NCBI GenBank assembly: GCA_043798985.1
Contig: JAZDOE010000023.1
Location: 3,626 to 67,625 of the forward strand
Source: Candidatus Falkowbacteria bacterium
GTDB lineage: Bacteria; Patescibacteriota; Patescibacteriia; UBA11705; JACRDX01
Length of the DNA stretch: 64,000 nucleotides
Direction: 5' to 3'
The stretch's first letter is position 1; every line of letters begins with the position of its first letter. The notes under the pieces were generated by a model. It did not search any database. It saw nothing but the letters and a program-made list of their open reading frames with translations, and was not told the DNA's origin. Positions 5,762-60,256 of this stretch are shown piece by piece. Position numbers and translations under genes: made by a program.

Positions 5762-8425
5762 TTATTTATTGGTTTTATTATAGCGCGTTTTCAATTTAAA
5801 TTCTATTTTGCCATTTGCAACTCCAACCAAAACCTTTTGGCCCGCGTGAATCTTCCCTTCAACAATTTCCAAAGCCAGTGGATTTAAAATCTTATGCTGT
5901 ATCACGCGTTTTAAAGGACGCGCGCCAAATGTCGGATCAAATCCTTCTTCTGCCAACAATTTTTTAGCATCTGCGGAAAACTCCAATGTAATTTCTTTTT
6001 CCAACAACCGTTTCGCAACGCGCGCGAGCTGCAAATCAACGATTTTTTCTAAATTCTCTTTTGTTAAACTATTAAAAATAATTGTGTCATCCAGCCGATT
6101 GATAAATTCCGGTCTGAAATGATCGCGCAATCGTTCACCGATTTTTTCACGCATCCGATCTTGTACCGTTCCTTTTCGTGAACTGTCCGCAAAACCGATT
6201 TCATTCTTTGTCGTGATATCTAAAATCAAATCGCCACCAATATTGGACGTCATGATCAAAATGGTATTTTTAAAATTTATCACGCGGCCCTTTGCGTCAG
6301 TCAGCCTGCCATCGTCCATAATTTGCAATAAAATATTCAACGTGTCAGGATGAGCTTTTTCAATTTCATCAAATAGAACAACAGCATATGGCCGGCGCCG
6401 AATTTTTTCAGTCAATTGGCCGCCCTCATCATAACCAACATATCCGGGCGGCGAGCCAACAATTTTTGAGACAGTATGTTTTTCCATGAATTCTGACATG
6501 TCCAAGCGAATGACTGCGTTTTCATCATTAAACATAAATTCAGCGAGCGCTTTTGCCAATTCTGTTTTTCCAACGCCCGTTGGACCAAGGAATAAAAACG
6601 ATCCAATTGGTGTATTTTCCTCTGAAATTCCGGCACGAGATCTGCGCAAAGCATTGGCAACCGCTTTAATCGCGTCTTCTTGGCCAACAACTCGTTGTTG
6701 CAGTTCTTCTTCGGCTTTAACAAGTTTTTCTGATTCTGTTTCCAACATTTTTTGTACCGGAATTCCTGTCCATTTTGAAACAACGCGCGCGATGTCCTGT
6801 TCAGACACTTCTTCCTTTAGCATCGCGCGCCCACTTTCTTTTTGAATTTTAACAAGTTTAGCCTTTGCGATTTTAATCTGTTTGCGCATTTCCGGAATTT
6901 CGCCATAACGCAACTTTGCCACTTTTTCAAACTCTGCTTTTTGCTCCAAAATTTCAGCTTCCTGCTCGGTTTGATCTATTTTTTTATTCAAACCTTGAAT
7001 TTTCACGATCAATTCTTTTTCCTGCGTCCAATGCAAATCAAGTTGTTTTTCTTTTTCTTTCAAATCAGCCAAACGCAATTCTATTTCTTTTAAACGCGAC
7101 TTGGAACTTACCGTTTTATCGGTGTTTAAAGCTTCTTTTTCAATTTCCAACTGCCGAATTTTGCGATTCAACTGGTCAATTTCAACCGGCTTACTTTCAA
7201 TTTCAATGCGCAACGCTGATGTTGCTTCGTCAATCAAATCAACGGCCTTGTCCGGCAAAAAGCGATCGGTAATATATCTTTGCGATAATTTCGCGGCCGC
7301 GACAATCGCGTCGTCAGTAATATGCACGCCATGATGAACTTCATACTTTGCTTTTATTCCGCGCAAAATCGCGATTGTGTCTTCAAGGCTTGGTTCGTTC
7401 ACCAAAATCGGCTGAAATCTTCGCTCCAATGCCGCGTCCTTTTCAATGTACTTTTGATATTCTTTAATCGTTGTCGCGCCAACGCAACGCAATTCACCGC
7501 GCGCCAAAGCCGGCTTTAACATATTTGACGCGTCCATTGCGCCTTCTGTCGCGCCAGCGCCAACTATTGTGTGCAATTCATCAATAAAAACAATGTATTT
7601 GTCAGCGCCTTCTTTGATTTCTTTAAGAACGGCTTTTAACCGTTCTTCAAAATCACCGCGAAATCGTGTGCCAGCTATCAACGCGCCCAAATCCACGGAA
7701 ATAACTTCTTTGCCTTTTAAATTTTCCGGAACATCGCCAACAATAATTCTTTGCGCGAGCCCTTCAACAATTGCCGTCTTTCCTGTGCCCGGTTCGCCAA
7801 TAAGCACCGGGTTGTTTTTTGTTCGGCGCGACAAAACCTGTAAAATTCTGCGGATTTCCTCGTCGCGCCCAATCACCGGATCCAATTTTTTATTTCTAGC
7901 CATTTCAGTCAAATTGACCGTATATTTTTCAATTGCTTTGTATTTTGCTTCTGGCTCAGGGCTGTCAACTTTGTGCGCTCCGCGCAATTCCGCTAAAATT
8001 TTTAAAACAACTTCTTCTTGCACGCCCAATTTTAACAACAGCCGCTGAATAGGGGATTCGGTTTTCAAAATTCCCAAAAACAAATGCTCCACGCTGACAA
8101 AATCATCGCCCATGTTTTTCGCCGCTTGTTCTGAAGTCATCAACGCGTAATTCAAATGCGGTGTGACGTAAACCTGCGCCATTTCTTCAGTGCCCGGATG
8201 AAAATCTTTTGGCATCTTTTGGAGAACGCTTACAATAGCATTATGCAAAGCATCAATGTCAACATTAAGTTTTTGCAAAAGACTGACGACCATGCTATTT
8301 TCTTGTTCCAGCAATGCCAGCAAAAGATGCGGCACGTCAATTTGTTTTTGCTTAAATTCAAACGCCAATCTTTGAGCGTTTTGTAATGCCTCCTGACTAC
8401 GAGTTGTAAATTTATGTGGATCCAT
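5762..8425 (-). CDS. clpB: ATP-dependent chaperone ClpB
   Basis: Two AAA+ modules (GEPGTGKT, GPTGVGKT), Clp N domain, coiled-coil middle domain; 887 aa. Confidence 0.9.
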   Translation of the reverse strand: MDPHKFTTRSQEALQNAQRLAFEFKQKQIDVPHLLLALLEQENSMVVSLLQKLNVDIDALHNAIVSVLQKMPKDFHPGTEEMAQVYVTPHLNYALMTSEQAAKNMGDDFVSVEHLFLGILKTESPIQRLLLKLGVQEEVVLKILAELRGAHKVDSPEPEAKYKAIEKYTVNLTEMARNKKLDPVIGRDEEIRRILQVLSRRTKNNPVLIGEPGTGKTAIVEGLAQRIIVGDVPENLKGKEVISVDLGALIAGTRFRGDFEERLKAVLKEIKEGADKYIVFIDELHTIVGAGATEGAMDASNMLKPALARGELRCVGATTIKEYQKYIEKDAALERRFQPILVNEPSLEDTIAILRGIKAKYEVHHGVHITDDAIVAAAKLSQRYITDRFLPDKAVDLIDEATSALRIEIESKPVEIDQLNRKIRQLEIEKEALNTDKTVSSKSRLKEIELRLADLKEKEKQLDLHWTQEKELIVKIQGLNKKIDQTEQEAEILEQKAEFEKVAKLRYGEIPEMRKQIKIAKAKLVKIQKESGRAMLKEEVSEQDIARVVSKWTGIPVQKMLETESEKLVKAEEELQQRVVGQEDAIKAVANALRRSRAGISEENTPIGSFLFLGPTGVGKTELAKALAEFMFNDENAVIRLDMSEFMEKHTVSKIVGSPPGYVGYDEGGQLTEKIRRRPYAVVLFDEIEKAHPDTLNILLQIMDDGRLTDAKGRVINFKNTILIMTSNIGGDLILDITTKNEIGFADSSRKGTVQDRMREKIGERLRDHFRPEFINRLDDTIIFNSLTKENLEKIVDLQLARVAKRLLEKEITLEFSADAKKLLAEEGFDPTFGARPLKRVIQHKILNPLALEIVEGKIHAGQKVLVGVANGKIEFKLKTRYNKTNK

Positions 8426-8469
8426 AGATAAAAAATTTTAAATTTCAAATTTTAAATTTTCAATGTTGG

Positions 8470-8496
8470 TTAGCACTCTTCAATAGAGACTGCTAA
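8470..8496. promoter_or_regulatory. CIRCE-like inverted repeat (HrcA operator) upstream of clpB
   Basis: TTAGCACTC-N9-GACTGCTAA vs consensus TTAGCACTC-N9-GAGTGCTAA (1 mismatch), 45 bp upstream of clpB start; TTGAAA-N17-TAAAAT promoter-like tract between it and ATG on minus strand. Confidence 0.5.
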
Positions 8497-12554: not shown

Positions 12555-12558
12555 AACG

Positions 12559-12595
12559 AAAACCCCGCCTCGGCCAAATGGCCGGGCGGGGTTTT
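12559..12595. terminator. GC-rich hairpin plus T-run (intrinsic terminator) downstream of giant gene
   Basis: aaaaccccgcctcggccaaatggccgggcggggtttt; near-identical copy at 45809-45846. Confidence 0.6.
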
Positions 12596-12602
12596 CAGTC
12601 TA

Positions 12603-15600
12603 CTATTTAATGTCTAAATAACTCAACGCGCGCACAATTGCCCAATCTTTTGATGTCTTTGGCCATGCTTTATAAACGCTTCTGTATTTTGCCAATCCAA
12701 CTTTTTCCTTATTCAAATCTCTTTCTGTGATGCGCAAACGATAAGTCACCATATGCACAAACTTTTCTTCTGTCGCGTTTGTGAACTTAACAACTCGCTT
12801 AAAGATTTTCTTAAAATCTTTTGCGGCCTGCGTTTCTTTGCTGGCGACCTTTGCTGGTGTCGCATTTTGCGCGATCTTTGCCAAATTCTGCCAATCAGCG
12901 TCTGTCACTGGCAATTTGCCATAAATCTCTTTAAAGTCAGCCAATAATCCGCTGCGGTCTTTTATTGCCAATGCTTTTGTCGCGTCTGAACTGCCGTACG
13001 TCAAGAATGTCACCACTAGCCATTCAGAACTTTTCGCCGGCATTTTCCTCATTATCTTGCCGAATTCGGTAATTGACAAAATCTCTTTTGCCAAACTGCG
13101 GATTGAAGCAATTGGCAAAGTAGGCGCAGCATTGACAATTGTAATAACCGGCGCACCTGCTTTTTCAGTGATTGTAGTAGCTGGCGGCGTTATGGTCGTC
13201 ACTTTTATTGCTGGTTGCGCGAATTTTGCCACTGCTAACCAATCAGCGTCTGTCTTTGGCAATTTATTACTATTGGCTTTCTTAAATTTGACAACTAACG
13301 CGCTACGCTCTGCCATTGTCAGCGCCTTTGTCGCATCAGAACTGCCATACGTAAGAAATGTCACAACCAACCATTCAGCGCTACTTGCTGGCACTTTTTT
13401 CATTATCTTATTAAATTCAACAATAGACGCGGCTTCTTTTGCCAAATCTCGTATTGTTGCTGTTGGCAATGTTGGCGTCGCGTTAACAATCGTTTCCGCT
13501 ATCGGAGTTGTCACTACTGTTTTAGCGGCTTCGTCTGCTACTTTTTTCGTCGCTTCAACAGTCGTTAGTGTTATAAATGTTTTACCAACCCCTGCCCCAA
13601 CGTTTGACGCAGTATCCTTGCTCTTTACTTGATAATGATAAATAGTCGCTGGCAATAATCCTGTCAATTTTACAGAGTGAGAATAAGCATACGCGCCGGT
13701 TTTTTCTTCTTTACCATAACTGGACGTGCTTCCATACAACAACCATGACAATGATGACTCATTGGTTGTCCATGTGATTGTTGCTTCTGTGTCTTTTGCT
13801 GAAACAGCAATATTGCTTATAACTGGCGCGGTTGTATCCAACAAAGCTCCAGCGCCGCCACCTGGACTAGCCGGCGGAGCTGAAATCGTGATTGGAGGAC
13901 TTCCAATTCCAACGGTCGTAAAGTGAGTAATATAACCAGTGATTGTATTAGCGGCCGTGTCAATTACTTGATTGTCAAACGGAACAGGCGCGCCTAATGT
14001 TTCATCAAAATAAACCAATTTCAATGCGCTTTCTGTCGTCACACCAGCAGCTGTCATTTCCGCGTTAGTATAATGAAACACAACTTCCGCGCCATCACCG
14101 CCAAGTTGATTAATATCTCCATCTTCGCTGTCTTTGGCCGTAATATCAACAAGATTACCAACCATTGTGAATGAATCTGTTGTTGGCGCGTCAACCTCCT
14201 CTACAATAACGCTACCCGGATTTGAATCTCTGCCTAAAACAGCAGCTCCAAAATTCATTTCAACGCCAGTATTATCTGAATCATCCACTGTCCCGCCAAC
14301 AGACGGGGTCATTGTAATTGTATCTGCTTTTTTAATATCCGTGGCATCGGCTGTCAATGTCGCGTTCTTGCCTGCCTGATCTGCGCCAGCAACAACTATT
14401 GCTGAACTCATTGTTGTTGGTGCGTGCAGAGAAGCATCTGCTTTAACTGTCCAAGTTCCATCGCTTACTGGCAATGTATATGTTCCGTCTTTTTGTATTG
14501 CTGTTTTCACATATTTGCCATCGCTCGTTGAAGCAAAAACAATACCATTATCCGCTAAAGTTGTTCCATCACTTTTATAAATCGTTCCTGAAATTTCCGC
14601 TGTTTTTGCCTGCAAAGGATTATTCACAGCAACTCCTTCGCCCGTGAGATTAGCATCAAAGTCATAATCAAGATTAGCCGAAACTGTCACTTCTGCTTTA
14701 GCCGGCGTATCATAATCTTGCTGTTCAGCTTTAATCTTATACGTTCCAGCTTTTACGCTTAACGAATAATCTCCGTTACTGTCAGTTGTTGCTCGCTCTG
14801 TCAAACCTGTCGTAGTTTCTGTCACAATAATACCCGCGTTAGCGATCGCACTATTTAAAGCATCCAACACATTACCGCTCACCGTGTATAGCGTTTGTCC
14901 TGACAAATTAATCGTCACAGTTTGATTGCTTGACAAATCAACGTTAGAGGCTGGTGAAAAATCACCCAAACCATCCACAAAAACCAAAATCTTATACGTT
15001 CCAGACGGCAAACTCATTGTTTTATTAGCGCTCAAATCAACAATTGGCATGCCGCGGCGCGCTGTTCCTGTTGTACCTTTTGCTTCAACAAAACCGCGCA
15101 TAGAGCTTGTTCCGCCAGTAAATGCCAAGGTTAATGTTTTTACCTGTGTCGCGTCATAGCTAATATCTGAAGTGACGTTTTGAATTGTGACCGTGGCGCT
15201 TTGTCCGATTTCGCCATAATCTGGCGTCCAAATAGACACACGGTACGTTCCAGCGCCAACTTTAATTGAATACGCGCCGCTTGAATCTGTCATTTCATTT
15301 CTATGATAACCGCCAGACGGCCTGTCGTTTGTTGTGTCCCATGTTTCAACGCCAACCGGAATATTTGCTTGCGCGGTTCCGCCAAGCGTCACTGTGCCAG
15401 AAATTGTATAACAGGTAATTGATGCTGGCTGTATGTTCTGATTATCCTTGCTAGCATCTGTCACGAGCACTGTTTTAGTAATGACTCCGCAAGTATCAAT
15501 TCCAGAAGGCATATCAGCTGTAATTGTCCATGTTCCAGCGCCAACGCCTATAACGTAATTTCCATCTGTATCTGTGCTGGTATGCACCATCTGATAACTT

Positions 15601-18600
15601 GTGGCCTCTTTTGCCTGCACATGAGCATATTGCAACGCGCTTCCAGAACTATTGCTGATCTTACCAGAAATTGTATAATCTGGCCTGCCAATCCGCACAA
15701 TCAACGGCGCGGCAGTTGTCACCAAAGCGTTGTTAGCGCTGATATCAGCTGTACTATTATTATCTACTGTTCCCGCGTTATTATTTGCCACTGAAACAGT
15801 GCGCGAAGGAGCTTCTCCATAACCAGGCTTAAATACTCCTAAATCATAAACACCATTCATTGATATTTTTAAGACAAAGCTACCATCTGCTTTTGATTGA
15901 GTATGAGAGCCAGCTCCGCCAAAGCCCATTGGCTGATTTGCAAAAACTTCAGCGTTTGCCATTACATTATAAACCTTTGCGCCGGTTGAAAACCCTTGGC
16001 TGATTCCGGCCAGCAAAGTGACTGTTGTGCCGCTCATGCTTGATATTTTACCAGTGGCAGTATTTGTCCCATCATATAAAACAATGGTATCATTCGCCAA
16101 AAATCCACCTGCGCTTGTCAAGGATAGGGTAGTGGCATTTGCTGTATAATTAGCTGACAATGTTGTTTGCGCGCTTACCACGCGGCCAAGAATTTGTTTG
16201 TTGGCAGTATTAATAGTAAAACTCAATTCTGTAATCACGGCGCCAGTATCCATGCGTTTTATTACTGGCGTTCCACCAACTCCTGACACTTCAATATTTA
16301 CGCTCATCGGCGGCATCCAATCAGGCATTTGCGGTGGTCCCATTTTGGGACCCTTTGGCATAGCTGGATAAACACCTATCATATAACTACCATTGGCTGG
16401 CAAATAAAGCGTTGTGCTATTGTTAGTCACCGCGCCTGTTAATGTTTTGGTTTCTACGTTATATCCCGCTGGACCGCCAGCAGAAATATCAACATCTTCT
16501 CCGCTTGCGCTAAATGTTCCTGACACCTTAACATTCAAACTTGTTGAATTGCCAGCTCCATATTTTACAAATGTCAAAGCCTTAGTCAACGTGCTAGTTC
16601 CAGCGTTCCAATTTGCGCCAGATCCCGGTAAACACAATGGTTCAGGATTCATTTGCCCGCTATATTTGTTGTTCGCCCCCAATGTGATTGTTGGTTCAGT
16701 GAACAAATTGTAGCAACCATTTGGAAGATTAGACCAAGTCTGCGCGCCCGTTCCATTGGTAATTGTGACAGTAGCGTCCTGCGGGCCTGACATTGGCGAA
16801 CCCATCATTAAACTAAACGTACCATTACCCTCTGCGGCAGTAATATTCGCTGTAATGTTATTTGTACCAGCCGCAGCAGTGAAAAATGGCATTGATGTCT
16901 TAGATTCAACCAATGTCCCTGCCGCTTTATAAGACTTCATGTCAATGCTATATCCTTCTGTATTGAAATCTTTGGGAATCTTTGAATTAATTATTCCTTT
17001 AATTTCCAAGTGCAAGAAATCTGGGTCTCCGGTATTGCCAGCAACGCCGCCATCAAGAACGCTTAAATACAATGTGACAGTTTGGCCAGACACAGTGACA
17101 CCGTCATTTGCCGCGCCGCCCTTGGTCGCGGCGCTTGAGCCATCATCAGTCACCCCGCTTGTTTTTAACGCAACGGTGCTTGGACCCATCATGTTTAAAT
17201 CATTTTTATTAGGATTATATGGGTCAGGAATAACGCTTGAAATATCAAAACCTTGCGGAAAAGTAATTTTAATTGTCGCGCCATTATCTAAACGATTTGA
17301 AGTGCCGCCAGATGGAGCAATAGGGAAGTCAATAATGTATGTTGTCGTCGCGCCTGCCATTGAGTTCATCGGAAACACACCAGCTGCCATACCGCTTCCC
17401 TTGTCCATTGCCGTAAAACCGCCAAATCCAGTAGGTCCTGTCATCGTTGCTCCGCCAGCCATTGGCGCGCCCATCATGCCACCGCCGCCAGGACCGACAA
17501 ATCCTTGAGTTTTAGCGCTGCTCAAAACATTCCCGCTCGCTGTATCAACATCAGTATCCATCGGATTGCTTGATAGATCCTTAACATTGGCAACCACAAA
17601 GTTATATTTACCGCTTAGCGCAAGCCCTGAAATTTTAACGGTATTTACTTTATTATCCCAAGTAAAACTCGCGGCATTTGGAATTATATATGGAGTCGTA
17701 CCTTCCGCACCTTGCGTGATAGAATAATTTGCAGGATTTATCACGCTACTTGTCCAACGATTAGTATCAGTGGCGCTCGCCGCGTTCATTGCTTTATTAA
17801 AAGTAATCGCGCAGCTGTAATCATCGCAATTTGAAAATTCAACTCGCGGCTTATTAGTATCAACGGTGGTTGACATCGTAAATGTGCGCGTGGTGGTGAG
17901 GAAATCATTGCCAGCCAAATCATTGATGCCAGTTGCGCCGCCAATCAGTTGCACCGTGTAAGTAGCGCCTGCCATTAATCCAACTGTTGGATAAATGCGA
18001 ATGCTTTTTGCCATAGGATCAAATTCAACGGTGCTTGGAACATTGGTAGCGCCGGACATCAATTTGACCGTTGAACTATTAACAGTGGTGATGACCTCAT
18101 CCAAACCAATGTCTATAAAACCAATATTGCTGACATTTGTCGCGGCATTGTCTGGCCAGCTGCCAGTGATAGCTGGCGCAGAGCTGTCAGTACCAGTTCC
18201 TGTATCAAAATCTGAAACAAAGAATGCGGCGCTAGGATCATTCGGATTTCCAATTGTAATACCAGCGCTTGAACGCGCGGCATTCTTGACTTTTATACGA
18301 TAGTGAGTACTCGCGACTAAACCACCGGACACGACATCCATTGTCACTTGTTCTTTATCAGAGCTTAATGAAACACTGTCAATCAATGTTTGTGTCACAT
18401 TTGTCTCAACATTATTCGTCACGCTATATAATTCAAATGTTCCGCGATTAACAGAGCTGGAATCCATGCCCTCGCTAAAAGAAAGCACAATGTCGCTATT
18501 CTTTGAAATATTCCACGCGCCAGGCGCAGGGATAGCTCCAAGAATGTATGGCGGATTAATTGAGCCGCCAGTCCAGTTGCCAGTAGCTGTGTTATAGTTG

Positions 18601-21398
18601 GTAGACATGTCCAGATAGCCAGTATCAGTTTTCATGTTATTCCAGAATGTGGCGCCGCCTGTCATATAGCTATTTTCAGTTTGAGTAAACACAAAACCCG
18701 CTCCACCGCCAAAATCTTTCATATCACTTGCGCCTACTGTGAACATAAATTCATGACCACCGCCGATTCTGCTTCCAGAAATTGCATTGCCAGCAGTATC
18801 TTTTACTGCTGGCGTAATTTCAACAATGTACTGCGTTCCATTTGTCAAAAGCGCTTCTTGCTCAAGCACAATAACAGGCATTGTTGCTGATCCGCCAAAT
18901 GACCTTGTAATGCTATGAAATGTAACGCCCGAGCCAGTATCAAGCCCTATATTATATCCAGTCAAATTAACCATACTGCCACCTGACATTCTTTTGAATT
19001 TGATATTCGCGCTTGCCGCATCGCAGTTTGCACAAGTAGCTGTCGTTGAATCAATGGCCTTATCCAAACCAATCAATATCGGTCCTTTATCAATCACTAT
19101 ATCAGCTGGCGCGCCCATCATTCCCGCGCCCGGCGCGCTCCACATCACACCCGGCGCATCCAAATCACCGCCAAGTCCGGCACTGCCAGCTGTCAAGCAA
19201 GAAACCCAACCACTGGAAACAGGATTGTTAGAATTCACAGACACACCCCAAATTTGCCCATCAAGATAACCGCCGCTTGTGGTCTTTAAATTATAAACCC
19301 CATCTGAAACATTATTGATTGTAAATACGCCGCTATTATTACTGATCGCGCTAAAACCAGTTCCCTCTAAATAAACCGTAGCATTAGCAATTGGAGTAGA
19401 GCAGTCACTCTGATATACTGTGCCGGAAACGCTTCGTGAACCGCTGGAAGTTGAAACTGTAATATGGTATGGGCTGCTTTGCGCGGTAGCTATGCTGGTA
19501 GCGCTCGGGTTGAAACACGCAACGCTTGTAGCAGGCACTGAATCTGTCGCGTAAATATAATAATCTATCCCTGCTGATGTCACCGCAGACGCTGGAATTG
19601 TAAAAACAACGTCCATCATCATCTGTCCTGTCACACAAGTAGGGGATTCTGGCCAACTTGTATTTGACGCTTTATAACAAAGTTTTGTTGTTAGATTAGA
19701 AAACGCCTCTTGCATGTCATTAATTTTAGCTGGAATTTTCAATTCGTTGCTTACCGTTGAATTAATAATCGGCATGTGTATTATTGTTGGAGCAGTATTA
19801 ACACCGCCGCCACCAGGAGTTTCAGCTGTAGCCGCCAAATTTTGAGGATCAGCAGTGGTCCTAACAATAAAATCCCAACTATTTATATCACTATCATAGC
19901 CATTGCCGCCAATGACATTAGCGCCGCCAACATCCATTGTTGTCGCAGTAGCGCTAGCCAATGCTTTTCTTTCCGCGCTTTTGCCAGCAGTCATTGTGCC
20001 GATGAATGGGGATCCCTCATAAACTCGCGCATTCGCTCCAAGCCCAACCATATCTATCACTTCACCAAAAGCATTTAAAAAGAAAATTGTATCTCCTGCC
20101 GCTAAATCAACCCCGGTAAATGTCGCGTCAGCTATCATGTTAGCGCCATTAACATTTTGGTGATAATTGTTAGCTGTATTCGCCAAAAGATAATATTTGC
20201 CTGATGCTAAATTAACATTTCCCAGCGTTGCTAATGTCGTATAAACGCCACCAACAAACGCCTTTATCGTATAATTGTTCAAATTCATATTCCCCCTGGA
20301 ATATATTTCAATAAATTCATCAGTTGTGTTTGTGCCTGCCAATTTAACTTCTGAAATTACTAACGATGTTGAACTTAATGTTGGATATACATTAAAATTA
20401 CTGGAAACCGGCATTGGGTCTACCGCAGATTTTGGCGCGTTGCTTGGATCTGTTGTTATTTGTATCCAATCTTCTGTTGAAACAGAGATTCTCGCATCAG
20501 CATGCGCGTTCAAAACAAGCTTTGTAAGCTCTGTATTATCAAGCGCTGCTGAAACAATGGTCTCTGTGTCACTAGCATCCTTTGTATGTAATGTATATTT
20601 AACAGCACAGGTTTCCGCGCTCGCGCAATTGGTAGTCGCGCTAGACATGTTTTTATCAAACATGACTGTCAATTGTTTATAATTCGCATACACAAGCCTT
20701 GCAATATGCGGCGGCTGTATCCAACCGCCAGCGCCATCGCCCATGCTTGTCAACGCTCCCGTAGAAAACGCGGTAATTGATGGGGAAGTGCCAGACGTCA
20801 CAACTGTTCCGCCAGCTCCGGTCAAAAATGTCAGTCTGAAAGATTTACCAGCTGGCGGCTGGGCAGCCATTTTCATGTGAACAAAATAGTTATAGCCAGT
20901 CGCGTAACTTGTTGGCAATGCTTGATTTGTTATGTCTAATGTTGTGTCATACGTGCCATTTCCATTGTCAGTCCATGTTGGCTTATTTTCCCACGCGAGA
21001 ATAGTGTCAATGCTACCGCCCGGTTCAAAACCTCCATTGCTATTGTTATCTTTATAAACACACAAACCTTGGCTGTCATTAGCGCCGCCCGCGCCAGCAT
21101 CATTAAATGCAACAAGCATCGTGGCCGGCGTCGCGCCAGAAGTTCCAATGTCTTCAAACCTTACCTTAATGCTCTGCAATTGTTCACTCGCGCTCGCAGT
21201 TATTTTCAAACCAGCGACCACTTGCATCATGCCGCCAGAAACCATCCACGAAGTTGGAATTCTGTTTTCGGTCGCCACTGTCACTGCCGCGTTAGCTGGA
21301 AATAGGGGAGTCAAAATTCCCGCGATTCCGATTGTCCACGCGATTGTTGCCATTACAATAAAAACATTGAATGGCTTGTTTTTCGCAATCATTCTCAT
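12603..21398 (-). CDS. giant (2931 aa) secreted/cell-surface protein with repeated beta-sandwich domains
   Basis: N-terminal signal/TM; Thr/Gly/Ser/Ala-rich; several CarboxypepD_reg-like repeats (e.g. SGTVYQSDCSTPIANATVYLEGTGF...NNSGVFTI); FN3-like module; C-terminal 2x ~110-aa tandem repeat. Confidence 0.7.
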   Translation of the reverse strand: MRMIAKNKPFNVFIVMATIAWTIGIAGILTPLFPANAAVTVATENRIPTSWMVSGGMMQVVAGLKITASASEQLQSIKVRFEDIGTSGATPATMLVAFNDAGAGGANDSQGLCVYKDNNSNGGFEPGGSIDTILAWENKPTWTDNGNGTYDTTLDITNQALPTSYATGYNYFVHMKMAAQPPAGKSFRLTFLTGAGGTVVTSGTSPSITAFSTGALTSMGDGAGGWIQPPHIARLVYANYKQLTVMFDKNMSSATTNCASAETCAVKYTLHTKDASDTETIVSAALDNTELTKLVLNAHADARISVSTEDWIQITTDPSNAPKSAVDPMPVSSNFNVYPTLSSTSLVISEVKLAGTNTTDEFIEIYSRGNMNLNNYTIKAFVGGVYTTLATLGNVNLASGKYYLLANTANNYHQNVNGANMIADATFTGVDLAAGDTIFFLNAFGEVIDMVGLGANARVYEGSPFIGTMTAGKSAERKALASATATTMDVGGANVIGGNGYDSDINSWDFIVRTTADPQNLAATAETPGGGGVNTAPTIIHMPIINSTVSNELKIPAKINDMQEAFSNLTTKLCYKASNTSWPESPTCVTGQMMMDVVFTIPASAVTSAGIDYYIYATDSVPATSVACFNPSATSIATAQSSPYHITVSTSSGSRSVSGTVYQSDCSTPIANATVYLEGTGFSAISNNSGVFTINNVSDGVYNLKTTSGGYLDGQIWGVSVNSNNPVSSGWVSCLTAGSAGLGGDLDAPGVMWSAPGAGMMGAPADIVIDKGPILIGLDKAIDSTTATCANCDAASANIKFKRMSGGSMVNLTGYNIGLDTGSGVTFHSITRSFGGSATMPVIVLEQEALLTNGTQYIVEITPAVKDTAGNAISGSRIGGGHEFMFTVGASDMKDFGGGAGFVFTQTENSYMTGGATFWNNMKTDTGYLDMSTNYNTATGNWTGGSINPPYILGAIPAPGAWNISKNSDIVLSFSEGMDSSSVNRGTFELYSVTNNVETNVTQTLIDSVSLSSDKEQVTMDVVSGGLVASTHYRIKVKNAARSSAGITIGNPNDPSAAFFVSDFDTGTGTDSSAPAITGSWPDNAATNVSNIGFIDIGLDEVITTVNSSTVKLMSGATNVPSTVEFDPMAKSIRIYPTVGLMAGATYTVQLIGGATGINDLAGNDFLTTTRTFTMSTTVDTNKPRVEFSNCDDYSCAITFNKAMNAASATDTNRWTSSVINPANYSITQGAEGTTPYIIPNAASFTWDNKVNTVKISGLALSGKYNFVVANVKDLSSNPMDTDVDTASGNVLSSAKTQGFVGPGGGGMMGAPMAGGATMTGPTGFGGFTAMDKGSGMAAGVFPMNSMAGATTTYIIDFPIAPSGGTSNRLDNGATIKITFPQGFDISSVIPDPYNPNKNDLNMMGPSTVALKTSGVTDDGSSAATKGGAANDGVTVSGQTVTLYLSVLDGGVAGNTGDPDFLHLEIKGIINSKIPKDFNTEGYSIDMKSYKAAGTLVESKTSMPFFTAAAGTNNITANITAAEGNGTFSLMMGSPMSGPQDATVTITNGTGAQTWSNLPNGCYNLFTEPTITLGANNKYSGQMNPEPLCLPGSGANWNAGTSTLTKALTFVKYGAGNSTSLNVKVSGTFSASGEDVDISAGGPAGYNVETKTLTGAVTNNSTTLYLPANGSYMIGVYPAMPKGPKMGPPQMPDWMPPMSVNIEVSGVGGTPVIKRMDTGAVITELSFTINTANKQILGRVVSAQTTLSANYTANATTLSLTSAGGFLANDTIVLYDGTNTATGKISSMSGTTVTLLAGISQGFSTGAKVYNVMANAEVFANQPMGFGGAGSHTQSKADGSFVLKISMNGVYDLGVFKPGYGEAPSRTVSVANNNAGTVDNNSTADISANNALVTTAAPLIVRIGRPDYTISGKISNSSGSALQYAHVQAKEATSYQMVHTSTDTDGNYVIGVGAGTWTITADMPSGIDTCGVITKTVLVTDASKDNQNIQPASITCYTISGTVTLGGTAQANIPVGVETWDTTNDRPSGGYHRNEMTDSSGAYSIKVGAGTYRVSIWTPDYGEIGQSATVTIQNVTSDISYDATQVKTLTLAFTGGTSSMRGFVEAKGTTGTARRGMPIVDLSANKTMSLPSGTYKILVFVDGLGDFSPASNVDLSSNQTVTINLSGQTLYTVSGNVLDALNSAIANAGIIVTETTTGLTERATTDSNGDYSLSVKAGTYKIKAEQQDYDTPAKAEVTVSANLDYDFDANLTGEGVAVNNPLQAKTAEISGTIYKSDGTTLADNGIVFASTSDGKYVKTAIQKDGTYTLPVSDGTWTVKADASLHAPTTMSSAIVVAGADQAGKNATLTADATDIKKADTITMTPSVGGTVDDSDNTGVEMNFGAAVLGRDSNPGSVIVEEVDAPTTDSFTMVGNLVDITAKDSEDGDINQLGGDGAEVVFHYTNAEMTAAGVTTESALKLVYFDETLGAPVPFDNQVIDTAANTITGYITHFTTVGIGSPPITISAPPASPGGGAGALLDTTAPVISNIAVSAKDTEATITWTTNESSLSWLLYGSTSSYGKEEKTGAYAYSHSVKLTGLLPATIYHYQVKSKDTASNVGAGVGKTFITLTTVEATKKVADEAAKTVVTTPIAETIVNATPTLPTATIRDLAKEAASIVEFNKIMKKVPASSAEWLVVTFLTYGSSDATKALTMAERSALVVKFKKANSNKLPKTDADWLAVAKFAQPAIKVTTITPPATTITEKAGAPVITIVNAAPTLPIASIRSLAKEILSITEFGKIMRKMPAKSSEWLVVTFLTYGSSDATKALAIKDRSGLLADFKEIYGKLPVTDADWQNLAKIAQNATPAKVASKETQAAKDFKKIFKRVVKFTNATEEKFVHMVTYRLRITERDLNKEKVGLAKYRSVYKAWPKTSKDWAIVRALSYLDIK
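12890..13560. repeat. tandem ~330-bp duplication inside the 3' end of the giant gene
   Basis: two near-identical DNA blocks (ccaatcagcgtctgtc...gccaaa... repeated) encoding repeated TPTLP..IR.LAKE..SI.EF.KIM.K.PA.S.EWLVVTFLTYGSSDATKAL units. Confidence 0.6.
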
Positions 21399-21752: not shown

Positions 21753-22730
21753 TTATGCTGATAATGGATGAAATTTTTTGTGCGCGTCTTCTGCGTAACG
21801 ATCAGACACATTCACATAGCGCGTTGTGGTTTGCAACGATTCATGCCCCAGCAAAATCTGAATGGCAGCCGGGTTTGCGCCTTGTTCAGCCAGTAGCGTG
21901 GCAAACGCATGCCGCAAAGAATGCGCGGAAATCGGCGTGTTAATGCCCAAAAGCTCGCGATAGTGTTTTATTCGCTCTTGCAAATAATTTGTTGAAACTT
22001 TTTTGTTCTTTTTAGCGCTGTTTTTACCACGCAAAGGTAAAAATAAGTATTCGCCACCGATTTCTCGTTTTGTCAAATAATCATTCAAATACTTTTGGCT
22101 ACGTTTAGTTAAATAAACAAACCGCTCTTTGCGGCCTTTACCCTTGATAAAAATGCGGCCGGTTTTATCAATTTGCGCGATTTTAAGGTTTAATAATTCA
22201 GAAATGCGCATTCCCGTGGAGAAAAGCGTTTCCAGCATTGCGCGGTTGCGGCTCGCGACAATTTCGTTTTGCTCAAATTGATTGGGAAACTCAATCAATT
22301 TGACGATATCTTCAAATTCCGCGAGCCGCAGATGCTTTTTGTCTGTTTTTGCAAGTTTAATCATATCCGGCGCAACAGGGCAATCATAATCCATTTCAAT
22401 CAAATACTTAAAATAAGAACGTAGCGCTGAAAGCATGCGATTCGTTGTATAACTGCTCAAATGTTTTTCCGTGTCATTTCCACCAGCTGTCTTGCGATCA
22501 TGAGAAGCGAGATAGGCTTTATAATTCAAAATTGTTTTTTTATCAATCTTTTCAAACGATGCCTCAACTTCCTGCAAAAAATTTAAAAAAGTTTTTAAAT
22601 CGCATTCATAATTATAAATTGTTTCAGCAGAATAATTATTTGTTTGCATGTTCAATAAAAAATCATCAAGGCAGGGAAGGGTTAGCTTGTAGCTTGTAGG
22701 TTGTAGGTCGGATTTTTTTTGTCCAGCCAT
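21753..22730 (-). CDS. tyrosine site-specific recombinase, XerC/XerD-like
   Basis: C-terminal HSLRHAFATLLAEQGANPAAIQILLGHESLQTTTRYVNV (R-H-R-Y catalytic set), core-binding N domain. Confidence 0.8.
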   Translation of the reverse strand: MAGQKKSDLQPTSYKLTLPCLDDFLLNMQTNNYSAETIYNYECDLKTFLNFLQEVEASFEKIDKKTILNYKAYLASHDRKTAGGNDTEKHLSSYTTNRMLSALRSYFKYLIEMDYDCPVAPDMIKLAKTDKKHLRLAEFEDIVKLIEFPNQFEQNEIVASRNRAMLETLFSTGMRISELLNLKIAQIDKTGRIFIKGKGRKERFVYLTKRSQKYLNDYLTKREIGGEYLFLPLRGKNSAKKNKKVSTNYLQERIKHYRELLGINTPISAHSLRHAFATLLAEQGANPAAIQILLGHESLQTTTRYVNVSDRYAEDAHKKFHPLSA

Positions 22731-22793
22731 AAGTGAGTCAAAGGGTTATTATACTCACTTTATATTATAATAAAAACAACAACGCGTGGCAAG

Positions 22794-22821
22794 TTAACCT
22801 GTTAACAAATTAACCTGTTAA
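22794..22821. promoter_or_regulatory. direct repeat 2x TTAACCTGTTAA (each internally palindromic) upstream of recombinase gene; candidate recombinase/regulator site
   Basis: ttaacctgttaa caaa ttaacctgttaa, 64-90 bp upstream of xerC-like start. Confidence 0.25.
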
Positions 22822-22828
22822 TATGTCC

Positions 22829-22856
22829 GTAGAGACGAAACATGTTCCGTCTCTAC
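22829..22856. repeat. REP-like palindrome GTAGAGACG-N10-CGTCTCTAC
   Basis: gtagagacgaaacatgttccgtctctac; same arms as copies at 40522, 59536, 60186. Confidence 0.6.
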
Positions 22857-22954
22857 AAGAATAACGCGCCACAGGGCAAAATTGAAGGTCATTTTTTGGC
22901 TAAGTTTAGCGACAAATCCGACGTGCGCTTTTTATTCAAAAATAAGTTCAAAAA

Positions 22955-23078
22955 TACGAATTCCGAATATCGAAATACGAAACAAATTCCAAATCAGACT
23001 ACGCCTGCCGGCGGGCAGGAATCTGAATGTTTCAATATTGGAAAATTAGAATTTCGTGCTTGTTTCGGATTTAGAATT
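22955..23078. mobile_element. MITE-like hairpin repeat, copy A
   Basis: ~85% identical to 47709-47833; terminal inverted repeats AAATMCGAAACAA / TTGTTTCGKATTT; central GC palindrome cctgccggcgggcagg. Confidence 0.55.
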
Positions 23079-23214
23079 TCGAGTTTATAAACACGCAGAA
23101 GCAATCTCGCTTACACGAGGCCCAGATTGCCACGTCGCTCACTTTGCTCGCTCCTCGCAATGACAGTCGCGTCCCCCACCGGCACGCAGCCGTTTTTATG
23201 CGTCGTATAATATA

Positions 23215-24135
23215 CTACTGATAATATATTTTCTCGCCAAACCGCAAATCAATATATCCAATGCCGCCTAATTTGTTTTTGGAAATTTCTTTGTTAAACA
23301 AAACGGTCAATTTTGAAATAATATCCCCTGCTGGCTTTTGCATGTTCAAAAAAAGTTCTGGTCCTTGTTTTAAATAAATTTTCAATTCATTTTGCGCAAC
23401 CAAAAATTCATAACTTTTTACTTGCAATCCGAGCGCTTGCGCAAACCCCTGCTCCAACGTTGTAATGTATTTTAATTCTTCCGCGGTTGTTATTGAATCT
23501 TTGATTTTTAATGTTAATGCTGGTCGTAAATCACGTATTTGAATAATATTTGCCGCGGCCGCGTCCTGACAAAATCCAATAATCGCGCCGACACTATCAA
23601 CTTTATAACATTGGTCGGCGCGCAACCAATACGCGACCGCGGTTTTTTCCTTTAAATAAACGTCTATTTGCTTTGGATAATATTTTTTGATAACTAACTC
23701 GTCCAAAAAATAATTTTTAGAAATTTCAGCGGCCAATTGCGCGGTGCTGAAAAACCAAATATTTTTTCTGGAAAAAATAAACAAAAACCGCGATGACATC
23801 TGTTCTTCTGCTTTTTCAATCACAGCTTCTGGCGCGATCGTTGAAGATTGAACATTAATTTTTTCAATGCGAAAAAACGGAGAAAAACAAAAAAAATAGA
23901 CCGCGCCTGCTAACGCGATGAATAATGTTGAAAAAAACACCACCGCTCCCCTGCTTCTCTGCTCTTGCAGTTTTTTTCGCAGGCGCGGATTTTGATAATC
24001 AACAACTTTGTAATCTTTTAAATATTTTAGGGAAACTGACATAAATCGCAATGCACAACCACAAACTGCCGATAAAATATCCGAAGACAACATCACTAAA
24101 ATAATGCGCGCCCAAGTACAATCTAGAAAATCCAA
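23215..24135 (-). CDS. ftsQ: cell division protein FtsQ/DivIB-like (POTRA domain)
   Basis: single TM, then POTRA-like region, then C-terminal GYIDLRFGEKIYY; true start probably internal Met (~24044 or 24093) because the ORF overlaps the upstream PAP2 gene. Confidence 0.6.
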   Translation of the reverse strand: MDFLDCTWARIILVMLSSDILSAVCGCALRFMSVSLKYLKDYKVVDYQNPRLRKKLQEQRSRGAVVFFSTLFIALAGAVYFFCFSPFFRIEKINVQSSTIAPEAVIEKAEEQMSSRFLFIFSRKNIWFFSTAQLAAEISKNYFLDELVIKKYYPKQIDVYLKEKTAVAYWLRADQCYKVDSVGAIIGFCQDAAAANIIQIRDLRPALTLKIKDSITTAEELKYITTLEQGFAQALGLQVKSYEFLVAQNELKIYLKQGPELFLNMQKPAGDIISKLTVLFNKEISKNKLGGIGYIDLRFGEKIYYQ

Positions 24136-34532: not shown

Positions 34533-34651
34533 AAAAAAATTTTGAATTTTGAATTTTTAATTTTAAATCAATGTTGAATGTATAAATGTTTGAATGTTTC
34601 AAAATTCAGATTTAAAAATTCATTAAAAATTAGAAATTTGAAATTCAAAAA

Positions 34652-38340: not shown

Positions 38341-39502
38341 TCATTCCGACCTCACTTTAGTGAGGGAGGAATCCCTTGTAAAGACTTTGCGAATGACAAT
38401 CGCCGCTCTTATCCGCGACATTAACCCCAAATAAAATTCCAAATTGTTCAACGTTGCCAATCTCTGCGCTAATGGTTCTTTAATCATAAACAAATACCGC
38501 AAGTACGCGCGCGAATAATTTTTTAATACATCAATTTTGCTATCAGCATTAATCGGCGTTTCATCAAATTTAAACTTTTCATTGCAAATATTCAGCTGAT
38601 CATAAAATTTTTCGTCTTTCATCACGTTCACGTGCTTTTTAAAAACAAACAACCGACCATGCCGCGCCTCTCTTGTTGGAATCACGCAATCAAACATATC
38701 AACTCCAAATTTAACCGCTTGAACAATTTGCTCTGGCCGACCAACGCCCATCAAATATCTCGGCTTGTTTTTCGGCAATAATTCGTCAATATATTCCAAA
38801 ACCTTGTACATTTCTTCAACTGATTCGCCTACCGCCAATCCGCCGATCGCATATCCGTCGAAATTGATTTTTGCCAAATCTTGCGCGCTTTTTTCACGCA
38901 AATCGCGTTCCAATCCGCCTTGAACAATGCCAAAAATCAATGGCCGTTTTTTCAATTTTACCCTGTCATTCGACAGGGTCTTGCGAAAATAATCAAAACT
39001 TTTTTTCGCCCACAAAGAAGTCAGTTCAACCGATTGTTCCAGATATTGGCGCTCGGCCGGCAAACCAACGCACTCGTCCAAAACCATTAAAATATCCGAA
39101 TCAATCGCCCGCTGAATTTTTATGGACTCTGCGGGCGACATAAAAAATTTCTTACCATCAATATGTGATTGAAATTCAACGCCGGCCTCGCGCAACTTAC
39201 GAATTTTTGCCAACGAAAAAACTTGGAATCCGCCGCTATCAGTCAGAATCGGCTTGTCCCAGTTCATAAAATGGTGCAAGCCGCCAAGTTTTTTCAGTTC
39301 TTTTTTCGCCGGGTCGCAACATTAAATGATACGTGTTTCCTAAAATAATTTGCGCGCCAAGTTGATTCAAATCCTCGGTTGTCAAAGTTTTCAGCACACC
39401 TCGCGTGGCAATTGGCATAAAACACGGGGTTTCAATTTCACCCCTCCGCGTTTTCAACATCCCTAACCTTGCCTTTTTGTTGTTGTTCAGTACTTTAAAC
39501 AT
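38341..39502 (-). pseudogene. tgt: queuine tRNA-ribosyltransferase gene interrupted by a +1 frameshift in a T6/A6 homopolymer
   Basis: N-terminal 87-aa ORF (..GNTYHLMLRPGEK) and 312-aa ORF (..[30 protein letters not shown]..) join in the A6 run at 39301-39306; removing one A restores [17 protein letters not shown]. Confidence 0.75.
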
Positions 39503-40452: not shown

Positions 40453-40521
40453 ATTTTCACGGGTGCCACATATCCACACCCCTCAATTTTTCATAAAATT
40501 TTCAAAATGGTATTTATAATG

Positions 40522-40549
40522 GTAGAGACGAGATATATCTCGTCTCTAC
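40522..40549. repeat. REP palindrome, perfect 28-mer
   Basis: gtagagacgagatat|atctcgtctctac, preceded by TATAAT. Confidence 0.65.
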
Positions 40550-40607: not shown

Positions 40608-40655
40608 GTAAAGACGAGATACCCGCCTGCCGTCGGGCAGGTATCTCGTCTTTAC
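40608..40655. repeat. 48-nt compound palindrome (REP variant GTAAAGACGAGATAC...GTATCTCGTCTTTAC with inner cctgcc-gtcg-ggcagg hairpin)
   Basis: outer 15-bp perfect arms; inner GC hairpin matches the MITE core palindrome cctgccggcgggcagg. Confidence 0.55.
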
Positions 40656-45804: not shown

Positions 45805-45808
45805 CAAA

Positions 45809-45846
45809 CAAAACCCCGCCTCGGCCAAATGACCGGGCGGGGTTTT
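45809..45846. terminator. bidirectional intrinsic terminator; near-identical copy of 12559-12595
   Basis: aaaaccccgcctcggccaaatgaccgggcggggttttt between convergent genes. Confidence 0.6.
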
Positions 45847-45858
45847 TGTTGATAAAAT

Positions 45859-47694: not shown

Positions 47695-47708
47695 AGCCGT
47701 TAAAATTC

Positions 47709-47833
47709 GAAATCCGAAATTCTAAATCCGAAACAAATTCCAAACCTGACCACGCCTGCCGGCGGGCAGGAATCCGAATGTTTCAAACATTGAAAAATTA
47801 GTATTTCGGGCTTGTTTCGTATTTCGATATTCG
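47709..47833. mobile_element. MITE-like hairpin repeat, copy B
   Basis: ~85% identical to 22955-23078 including cctgccggcgggcagg core and TIRs; ends ~10 nt before pyrH ATG. Confidence 0.55.
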
Positions 47834-47852
47834 TGCTTCGTGTTTTTTATTA

Positions 47853-53915: not shown

Positions 53916-53986
53916 AACATTATAAAATTTGGAATTTCTAATTTTAAATTTTTAATCAATTTTAAAATCTGAATTTTTAAACATTT

Positions 53987-54103
53987 TTAACCTTGTCTCT
54001 GTTTGTGTTTGGCCGTTGTTGGGCAAATAACAAATAAGCGCCCTTTTCTGCGCACAATTTTACAATCTTTACAGCGCTTTTTAACAGAAGCTTGCACTTT
54101 CAT
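53987..54103 (-). CDS. rpmJ: 50S ribosomal protein L36
   Basis: translation [38 protein letters not shown]; not in the ORF track (<60 aa). Confidence 0.75.
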
Positions 54104-58796: not shown

Positions 58797-58803
58797 ATCA
58801 TTT

Positions 58804-58830
58804 GTACAGACGAGATATATCTCGTCTCTC
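58804..58830. repeat. REP-like palindrome, slightly degenerate ends
   Basis: gtacagacgagatat|atctcgtctctc; core identical to 40522 copy. Confidence 0.5.
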
Positions 58831-59408: not shown

Positions 59409-59535
59409 ACGCGCAACAAACCTTGTCAAAAATTTTGACAAGGTTATTTTTTTATTATCTGCGCGCCACCTAGAATTTCAAGGGTGTCACCTATTCACAA
59501 CCCTGCATTTCATATACAAAAATGCGCATTATATT

Positions 59536-59563
59536 GTAGAGACGGGGCATGCCCCGTCTCTAC
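59536..59563. repeat. REP palindrome, perfect 28-mer, immediately 5' of RAYT
   Basis: gtagagacggggcat|gccccgtctctac; preceded by TATATT. Confidence 0.7.
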
Positions 59564-59572
59564 CCGAACAAT

Positions 59573-60112
59573 ATGCGCAATGAATTATTATTTCAAAATC
59601 AATTTAGAATTCCTTCTACACGGCTCCAATATTGGAACTACGCCCAAGACGGGTGGTATTTTGTTACAATTTGCACGCACAAACGAGAATGCTTTTTGGG
59701 GGAAATAAATAACTACGAACCGCAACTATCCCCCGTGGGACAAATCGCTGAAAAATGTTGGTTAGAAATTCCGCAACATTTTCCAAATGTTGAATTAGAG
59801 ACATTCGTCATCATGCCAAATCACATACATGGAATAATTACAATTAATTGCACGGAGCAGCAAACAAACAAAAATAATATTGGACAAAATTTACCGCTTC
59901 CACAATCATTGTCTGCGGTAATTGGTTCTTTCAAATCCGCCGTTTCAAAAATTATCAACAGAACACATCCAAAAATTCCCTTTCAATGGCAAACAAGATT
60001 TTACGACCGTATCATTCGCAATCGCGAATCAATGTACAAAATCAGCCAATACATTCTAAACAACCCTATAAAATGGGAATTGGACAGGAATAATCCAAAA
60101 AATGTTTATTAA
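59573..60112 (+). CDS. REP-associated tyrosine transposase (RAYT; IS200/IS605-like Y1 HUH enzyme)
   Basis: YFVTICT..., HUH motif MPNHIHGII, C-terminal WQTRFYDRIIRN...YILNNPIKW catalytic-Tyr block; single copy flanked by REPs; start moved from 59549 because that ATG lies inside the REP. Confidence 0.8.
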   Translation: MRNELLFQNQFRIPSTRLQYWNYAQDGWYFVTICTHKRECFLGEINNYEPQLSPVGQIAEKCWLEIPQHFPNVELETFVIMPNHIHGIITINCTEQQTNKNNIGQNLPLPQSLSAVIGSFKSAVSKIINRTHPKIPFQWQTRFYDRIIRNRESMYKISQYILNNPIKWELDRNNPKNVY

Positions 60113-60185
60113 TCTAACATTGAGGGCAACAATTATACACAACCCTAAATTTGGACAATATAATTAAAAATTTTATAAATTAAAT

Positions 60186-60213
60186 GTAGAGACGTAGCAT
60201 GCTACGTCTCTAC
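60186..60213. repeat. REP palindrome, perfect 28-mer, 3' of RAYT
   Basis: gtagagacgtagcat|gctacgtctctac. Confidence 0.7.
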
Positions 60214-60256
60214 ATAATATACCCCCCAAAATTCAATGTGTTATAAAACGCAAAAA

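Follow-up and report, generated by a model that had tools for sequence, protein, structure and literature searches.

The Correia elements of Neisseria, which duplicate a TA target and carry 26-bp terminal repeats related to transposase-bound ends, and the ERIC/IRU elements of enterobacteria are non-coding units of ~100-150 bp with inverted ends; they lie between genes of one transcription unit and could form a long hairpin in the mRNA. The palindromic elements of Rickettsia (RPE; 100-150 bp) sit in frame inside genes without truncating them. REP/BIME repeats, which go together with RAYT transposases, are extragenic palindromes without target duplication, the REPs being hairpins of 20-40 nt with a conserved GTAG. 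The nearest mechanistic precedent for the element described here is the IS607 family, whose ends carry several short direct repeats bound by multiple transposase dimers, terminate in GG and lack terminal inverted repeats, and which inserts at GG without target duplication (PMC6188088). In descriptive terms, the closest precedent is provided by the “global regulator binding sites” of Geobacter metallireducens: three to five tandem repeats of 7-9 nt (units GTTGCTYN, TCTCCGTS and MTYCTGA), paired on opposite strands at variable spacing, that occur in many copies between and within the genes of this one genome and are of unknown function (PMC2700814).

Here we describe a repeat that occurs twice in the 64-kb stretch of Candidatus Falkowbacteria DNA that was analysed (the window); it measures 135-143 nt in these two copies, which puts the element at ~135-145 bp. 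It shares with Correia and ERIC/IRU elements the size, the non-coding character, the inverted ends, the position between genes of one transcription unit and the possible long hairpin, but differs from Correia elements in its ends, which are arrays of 7-bp direct repeats, in the absence of a target duplication and in that no promoter or IHF-type site was found. Its four heptads per arm and its insertion without target-site duplication recall IS607; however, its termini read AAAT...ATTT, its flanks follow no GG rule, its arms are inverted, its repeats are spaced by 7 bp instead of ~10 bp, and no serine recombinase is present among the 42 window proteins scanned. As GG termini are absent, we claim only a resemblance to IS607. 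With the Geobacter sites it has the build in common but not the units, and its arms recur in phage contigs as well as in a Patescibacteria chromosome. Like REP/BIME repeats it is an extragenic palindrome without target duplication, but it contains no GTAG hairpin and its arms are arrays.

Results

Anatomy of the two copies

The sequence-only reading of this DNA had reported two repeat copies of ~85% identity with an identical central GC palindrome. Both copies lie at the two sites it had recognised, are sharply bounded, slightly wider than first delimited and 85% identical by alignment column over ~150 nt (MAFFT), and the GC palindrome is the same in each (Table 1). A repeat search returns them as a direct repeat of 95 nt, ungapped and 85% identical (family D4), together with inverted matches between arms of different copies (I3 and I15). 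Each copy consists of two inverted 34-bp arms and a centre of ~75 bp, in which a 27-nt GC-hairpin insert is nested; stop codons break most reading frames, and the remaining open frames are short.

An arm is built of four 7-bp units (consensus AAATCCG) followed by AAACAA. The lag-7 autocorrelation is significant in every arm (z 2.9-6.0; p=0.0005 for the periodicity of the left arm of copy A), and TTCGNNNTTCGNNNTTCG has eight matches in the window against 0.72 expected, seven of them inside copies A and B. The terminal inverted repeats AAATMCGAAACAA...TTGTTTCGKATTT recognised earlier do exist, but are mere inner ends of these longer arms. The inner spacing between arms is 83-84 nt in the window copies, the same as in the phage-contig loci L077 and L096.

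Copy A is ordered X-centre-Y' and copy B Y-centre-X'. The inner 22 nt of the arms agree at 22/22 positions when the arms are swapped vs 18/22 when they are compared directly: the left arm of copy A matches the reverse complement of the right arm of copy B at 30/34 positions (22/22 over the inner 22 nt), and the right arm of copy A is 93% complementary to the left arm of copy B (I15). The centres agree at 66/75 positions directly vs 31/78 as reverse complement. Since the arms are swapped while the centres are colinear, the centre has been inverted relative to the arms in one copy, which is the outcome to expect if the inverted CGAAACAA/TTGTTTCG repeats had recombined with each other. That the arms are built of heptads, that they are swapped between the copies and that the family extends to phage contigs (see below) had escaped the sequence-only reading.

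Table 1. Positions of the element, its parts and other features in the 64-kb window
Feature	Position	Strand	Sequence or content	E, viral-arm profile
Copy A	22952-23086		X-centre-Y'	
Copy A left arm, X type	22952-22985	+	AAATACG AATTCCG AATATCG AAATACG AAACAA	1.8e-6
Copy A centre, 74 nt	22986-23059	+	colinear with copy B centre; palindromic only in the GC core	
Copy A nested GC-hairpin insert	22994-23020	+	TCAGACTACG + CCTGCCGGCGGGCAGG + A; core palindrome 23004-23019	
Copy A right arm, Y type, three clear heptads	23060-23086	+	TTGTTTCGGATTTAGAATTTCGAGTTT	4.4e-5 (match on minus strand)
Copy B	47703-47845		Y-centre-X'	
Copy B left arm, Y type	47703-47736	+	AAATTCG AAATCCG AAATTCT AAATCCG AAACAA	1.1e-8
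Copy B centre, 75 nt	47737-47811	+	nested GC-hairpin insert 47745-47771; core CCTGCCGGCGGGCAGG 47755-47770	
Copy B right arm, X type	47812-47845	+	TTGTTTCGTATTTCGATATTCGTGCTTCGTGTTT	2e-5
REP variant with GC module, 48 nt	40608-40655	+	GTAAAGACGAGATA + CCCGCCTGCCGTCGGGCAGG + TATCTCGTCTTTAC	
Further REP copies	22829-22856; 40521-40548; 58803-58830			
RAYT-like unit	59535-60214		GTAGAGACG...CGTCTCTAC REPs at 59535-59562 and 60187-60214	
RAYT-like Y1 (HUH) transposase gene	59573-60112	+	between the two REPs	
Non-coding block, ~51 nt	22866-22916	minus-strand sense	TTTGTCGCTAAACTTAGCCAAAAAATGACCTTCAATTTTGCCCTGTGGCGC	
GC-rich repeat adjoining copy A	23096-23168 (approx.)		GTCATTGCGAGG...	
AATTTTR-type palindromes and half-palindromes	8426-8469; 34533-34651; 53916-53990		AT-rich; 7-nt periodic units	
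CIRCE-like operator	8470-8496		TTAGCACTC-N9-GACTGCTAA	
Bidirectional intrinsic terminators	12555-12602; 45805-45858		AAAACCCCGCCCGG..CCGAGGCGGGGTTTT	
Split queuine tRNA-ribosyltransferase gene	38341-39502		overlapping ORFs 39239-39502 (N-terminal) and 38341-39279 (C-terminal)	

A family whose arms are conserved in phage contigs

A viral scan for three perfect heptads retrieved 25 IMG/VR contigs; a 21-mer has 4.4e12 possible sequences, so that the chance expectation is far below one. A second viral scan, for AAATCCGAAACAAATYCMAAA at the junction of arm and centre, retrieved 11 contigs of 35-67% GC. Inverted arm pairs 40-123 nt apart are present in several contigs of the second scan, in L077/L092 and L083 of the first and in both window copies, and the family arm consensus is AAATCCGAAATCCGAAATTCGAAATCCGAAACAA. 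The viral status of these IMG/VR contigs was checked for L096 alone, which is a phage: it encodes a head-decoration protein, and its copy lies between a stop codon and the ribosome-binding site of the next gene. More generally, the family elements occupy intercistronic spacers of uncultivated phage genomes, and they are found in both orientations relative to transcription.

A profile made from ten viral arms only recovers all four window arms (E 1e-8 to 4e-5 in 64 kb), with nothing significant elsewhere in the window (next-best E 0.2); in 465 kb of non-viral loci it matches L054 and L052 only. The agreement is close to base for base: the left arm of copy B matches that of the viral locus L102 at 33/34 positions and its right arm matches that of L096 equally well, and among such 33/34 matches of a window arm is one to a phage contig of 55% GC. 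The orthologous phage loci L096 and L097 separate the parts of the element from each other, as their arms are 94% identical, their flanking genes 77% and 68%, and their centres, which differ in length, 44%. Complementarity between left and right arms is no higher within elements (0.794) than between elements (0.796), so that nothing points to selection for pairing over and above what the shared repeat entails. At the level of sequence, it is the arms as such, and not the hairpin, that are conserved.

Searches by other routes returned no relatives. BLAST with copy B and the L096 element against GenBank phages, and with copy B against plasmids, gave no match, although the low-complexity filter may mask the arms; concatenated six-frame peptides of copies A and B had no relatives among 5.8 billion proteins; and literature searches by sequence strings and by the topic of Patescibacteria and MITEs found nothing relevant, the sequences not being mentioned in the searchable literature.

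Heptad arrays also exist singly, in some cases just ahead of a start codon and in others within an ORF and in frame with it, and may accordingly lead an independent existence. At L054 (2125-2200), (AAATCCG)x4 followed by AAACAAATTC and AAAATTAC-type units lies in frame in an ORF resembling a CCA-adding enzyme, where it lengthens the stretch from the GGAVRD to the DxD motif by ~14 residues; the phage contigs L069, L071 and L090 have in-frame arrays of a similar kind. RPE provide an analogy for such in-gene arrays only: the array of L054 is in frame as they are, but what is found here are single arrays and not whole elements. Being open in each of the six frames and present within genes, heptad arrays are a hazard for annotation. 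One IMG/VR contig of 65% GC (L087) contains many palindromes made of inverted arrays of other heptamers (TTAGGAG, GATTTTG and GGGGATT; for example at 1642-1720, 5885-6026, 7342-7489 and 8187-8260), many of them beside gene starts, and its TTAGGAG arrays amount to repeated Shine-Dalgarno-like motifs.

Insertion into spacers without target-site duplication

Almost all genes of the window are encoded on the minus strand, and the pyrH and xerD-like products are 100% identical to NCBI proteins of Candidatus Falkowbacteria. The gap from a GT4 glycosyltransferase gene (stop codon 47853-47855) to pyrH (ATG at 47694) is filled by copy B, of which one end stands 8 nt upstream of the pyrH start and the other 7 nt away from the stop codon of the glycosyltransferase gene. 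The spacer that contains copy A measures 484 nt and separates a gene with weak FtsQ/POTRA similarity from a recombinase gene of the xerC/D type; the ATG of the latter (xerD-like), at 22730, is 221 nt from copy A. The sequence-only reading had placed both copies immediately upstream of gene starts, which holds for copy B but not for copy A: the stretch from copy A to the xerD-like ATG contains a promoter-like site and a non-coding block, both conserved, as well as a GTAG REP hairpin, and the same spacer also holds a GC-rich GTCATTGCGAGG-type repeat.

The glycosyltransferase-pyrH junction is different in each relative examined: an empty spacer of 5 nt in L064/L065 (pyrH identity 59%), a 69-nt palindrome of other inverted heptamer arrays in L062 (75%), an unrelated 144-nt element in L012 (76%) and a 102-nt hairpin in L014 (78%). 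At the site of copy A, the closest relative (L066; XerD 83% identical) has kept the flanking blocks but lacks ~250 nt, among them copy A and the neighbouring GC-rich repeat. Copies A and B are thus lineage-specific insertions, the sites of the relatives being empty or differently filled. The earlier suggestion that the element had inserted is thereby supported at both loci, and segmental duplication, named at the time as the competing origin, is excluded because the copies share no flanking gene sequence.

The GC-rich repeat that adjoins copy A, and that is missing together with it from L066, belongs to a family also found at L067 (1700-1810), at L012 (9860-10000) and in L015, L020, L036 and L053. 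The non-coding block ahead of the xerD-like gene contains two small hairpins and matches no Rfam family; L066 has a conserved version of it, which is no ORF there, and it can still be recognised in L067.

No target-site duplication was found at copy A, at copy B or at eight related viral copies (ten copies in all; the sequence-only reading had proposed this check), and the comparison of copy A with the empty site of L066 likewise shows none. A search of the window and 102 loci (~1.1 Mb) for a convergent pair of CGAA-type arms around an ORF found no autonomous partner; the wider arm pairs of L087 mix other unit types. Pfam scans of 42 window proteins, about three-quarters of the called ORFs, detected no serine or DDE transposase, and the sole mobile-type gene among them, that of a RAYT-like Y1 transposase, is tied to another repeat. 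The label “MITE” given to the element earlier is only partly apt: it is short, non-coding and multi-copy and has inverted repeats, but comes without target duplication and without an autonomous partner in these searches.

The element had also been thought to supply promoter or terminator activity. Scans of the sense strand of copies A and B found neither a sigma-70-like promoter nor an intrinsic terminator, and this reading is rejected because no such site lies inside either copy. Given that the glycosyltransferase-pyrH gap is only 5 nt in relatives and that copy B contains no promoter, pyrH is probably read through from upstream, in which case copy B cannot be a strong terminator. In Rfam scans of the whole window at the gathering threshold, the L10 leader alone passes and nothing is reported for the element, and a permissive scan of 22700-23250 gave chance-level matches only.

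A GC module nested in the element

The 16-nt GC palindrome CCTGCCGGCGGGCAGG and a one-base variant of it occupy three window sites against 0.01 expected; besides copies A and B, the third is a REP variant that consists of a 28-nt REP (family D2) with exactly 20 nt (CCCGCCTGCCGTCGGGCAGG) at the centre of its palindrome. The corresponding 20-nt module reads CC[C/T/A]GCCTGCCGNCGGGCAGG and can fold in two registers (CCCGCC/GGCGGG or CCTGCC/GGCAGG). Its core is also found in two other Patescibacteria genomes and ~30 low-GC metagenome contigs (loci L002, L007 and L015-L058, from scans of genome and metagenome collections), each time with a different palindrome or repeat around it, of which it forms the centre or apex; it is intergenic in 23/27 distinct low-GC cases. 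The full element is absent from all of these loci, and viral scans for the GC core and for a pattern of centre and right arm gave 0 matches.

The phage copy L097 reads ..AAATTCAAAATCCGAATGT.. unbroken, where 27 nt with the core interrupt AAATTCCAAA^ATCTGAATGT in both window copies; the GC core thus looks like a secondary insertion within the element. The sequence-only reading had taken a related palindrome in the REP variant as a link between the element and the REP family. A one-base variant is indeed present there, but it does not prove kinship, as the core recurs in unrelated palindromes and the nested module is all that the REP variant and the element have in common. Because the core behaves as an independent module in many palindromes, we infer that its sharing reflects nested insertion into two hosts and not relatedness of the two families.

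The short GC-rich palindromes known as GC clusters, which lie in the AT-rich non-coding DNA of yeast mitochondrial genomes and are often nested in repeats, offer an analogy for the module only: both are short, GC-rich and nested, whereas sequence and organisms differ. Candidate short direct repeats flank the module in L009 and L032, at odds with the zero-duplication insertion in the REP variant. In GTCATTGCGAGG-related repeats of other contigs, the module is often inserted at GAAGC^AATCC. A tblastn search for RAYT genes near other module-bearing loci found none. The occurrence of a 20-nt GC module at palindrome centres in many low-GC uncultivated bacteria constitutes a second lead from this work.

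Discussion

The balance of evidence leans towards copies A and B being paralogous members of a non-autonomous, non-coding insertion element, the heptad arms of which would be protein-recognition arrays. As the arms are nearly identical to those in phage genomes of very different base composition, the element looks like a small insertion element that spreads horizontally. Its history would begin with a centre, variable across the family, that first gained a separate 27-nt GC-hairpin insert in the lineage of this genome; the composite would then have been duplicated to a second locus, and the centre of one copy would subsequently have been inverted relative to its arms via the CGAAACAA/TTGTTTCG repeats. 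The protein partner of the arms and the mode of movement can be pictured as follows: a recombinase or transposase with sequence specificity, provided in trans, would bind to several sites on each arm and would place the element in gaps between co-directional genes, duplicating no target sequence. Copy B would be transcribed through as part of a glycosyltransferase-pyrH operon, with any effect at the RNA level a by-product.

Some observations weigh against an insertion element: only two copies are known in the genome (within the 64-kb window), and neither arms around a gene nor a cognate enzyme were found. Lone heptad arrays could instead be born by slippage or have a function in cis, and it is equally conceivable that the conserved arms bind some factor of host or phage that has nothing to do with mobility.

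An unlikely alternative is that the element is a functional intercistronic RNA hairpin, transcribed as part of operons, in which the arms pair to form an RNase III-type processing site or a 3' stabiliser and which would spread among phages and hosts by recombination, not by transposition. Among transcribed MITEs, Neisseria Correia elements are known to be processed by RNase III. Copy B and the phage copy L096 exactly fill spacers between co-directional genes, and several relatives hold other palindromes at the glycosyltransferase-pyrH junction, as if a hairpin were wanted there. The earlier proposal that the whole unit folds as one long hairpin has moderate support: copies A and B are predicted to form long imperfect hairpins steadier than shuffled sequences (MFE -34 to -43 kcal/mol, z -2.2 to -3.4), but their arms are only 62-74% complementary over 34 nt. 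The mismatches between the arms are G-A, A-A and T-T, with no wobble pairs, and the lack of excess complementarity within elements also speaks against selection on an RNA duplex, which in any case needs no arms conserved at 33/34 positions across hosts. Moreover, the occurrence of the element in both orientations relative to transcription does not suit a hairpin with an RNA function, nor does the 5-nt spacer without any hairpin in the more distant L064/L065.

The conservation of the arms as sequence would also be accounted for if they formed a DNA array, not itself mobile, to which a nucleoid-associated protein or a regulator binds, a possibility that we consider distinctly unlikely. Operators made of 7-bp heptad arrays, in direct and inverted order, are known for omega of pSM19035, a ribbon-helix-helix protein. 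The architecture is likewise that of the class 1-3 sites of Geobacter metallireducens, for which such a role has been proposed (PMC2700814). However, the same arms are present in genomes of 35% to 67% GC, in phages as well as in a Patescibacteria chromosome, which is hard to reconcile with one host regulator; the downstream genes, xerD-like and pyrH, have no obvious common regulation; and both sites are recent insertions.

It is very improbable that the element is of the REP/BIME type and owes its movement, in the form of single-stranded hairpin DNA, to the RAYT-like Y1 transposase of the window. Such a gene is present, with GTAG...CTAC REPs on both sides, Y1 transposition would fit the missing target-site duplication, copy A has a REP at a distance of ~100 nt, and one REP carries the GC module nested within it. 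The element, however, contains no GTAGAGACG-type hairpin (GTAG stands beside the core in copy A only, with GTGG in copy B), and we rate mobilisation by RAYT unlikely on this account; as the arms are not self-complementary, they cannot form the subterminal hairpins that Y1 enzymes recognise. The gene scores 62.6 bits in the NCBIfam model REP_Tyr_transpos, below the cut-off of 80 bits, it is flanked by GTAG REPs and not by the element, and tblastn detected no RAYT gene at the phage loci with family members.

Finally, an inverton, in which site-specific inversion between the arms would turn the centre around and thereby alter downstream expression, is scarcely credible: the orientation of the centre relative to the arms does differ between the copies and copy A does lie upstream of a tyrosine recombinase gene, but that recombinase is of the housekeeping XerC/D type (68-83% identical across Patescibacteria), no promoter was found in the centre by scanning, seen from the downstream genes the centres of both copies point the same way, and a single past inversion in a pair of paralogues is no evidence of a switch still at work.

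The significance of the element lies in the combination of a centre that is free to change with arms that are almost the same, base for base, in phage contigs (47-67% GC) and in a chromosome of Patescibacteria (41% GC). This combination points to a specific protein partner and hence to a concrete route to movement without target duplication. The family could mark phage-host DNA exchange in a lineage with few known mobile elements; if the element is neutral junk, its practical value is limited to annotation. We give a modest chance to a wider picture, according to which the heptad arms would be the platform of an undescribed recombination system that, without target duplication, moves ~100-bp cassettes between phages and bacterial chromosomes (including those of Patescibacteria) of very different base composition, with a centre that could be exchanged or flipped and with the 20-nt GC hairpin as a separate “nano-element” targeting the centres of other palindromes.

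Other repeats and genes in the window and relatives

The RAYT-like gene scores 29.9 bits in the Pfam family Y1_Tnp (cut-off 23 bits), has TnpA_REP (4er8) as its best PDB match, and contains an NHIH HUH motif and a tyrosine in SQYILNNP.

The AT-rich AATTTTR-type palindromes end a few bases upstream of minus-strand starts without a Shine-Dalgarno sequence, those of clpB, a class II aminoacyl-tRNA synthetase gene and rpsM. As the rpmJ-rpsM spacer of L012 is only 9 nt, the palindrome at rpsM is an insertion. These palindromes and the element have in common the 7-nt periodic inverted-array build and a 12-mer; we do not claim them as homologues of the element because neither profile is significant there (best E >70). 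The CIRCE-like operator lies in the divergent spacer upstream of clpB.

The two bidirectional terminators are nearly identical to each other, one (12555-12602) after a giant surface-protein gene and the other after rplL. In the syntenic locus of the relative L012, rplL is followed by a Cas12a (Cpf1)-Cas4-Cas1-Cas2 cluster (13099-19120); the window has none there. The queuine tRNA-ribosyltransferase gene is divided into two overlapping ORFs, which suggests a frameshift or a sequencing error.
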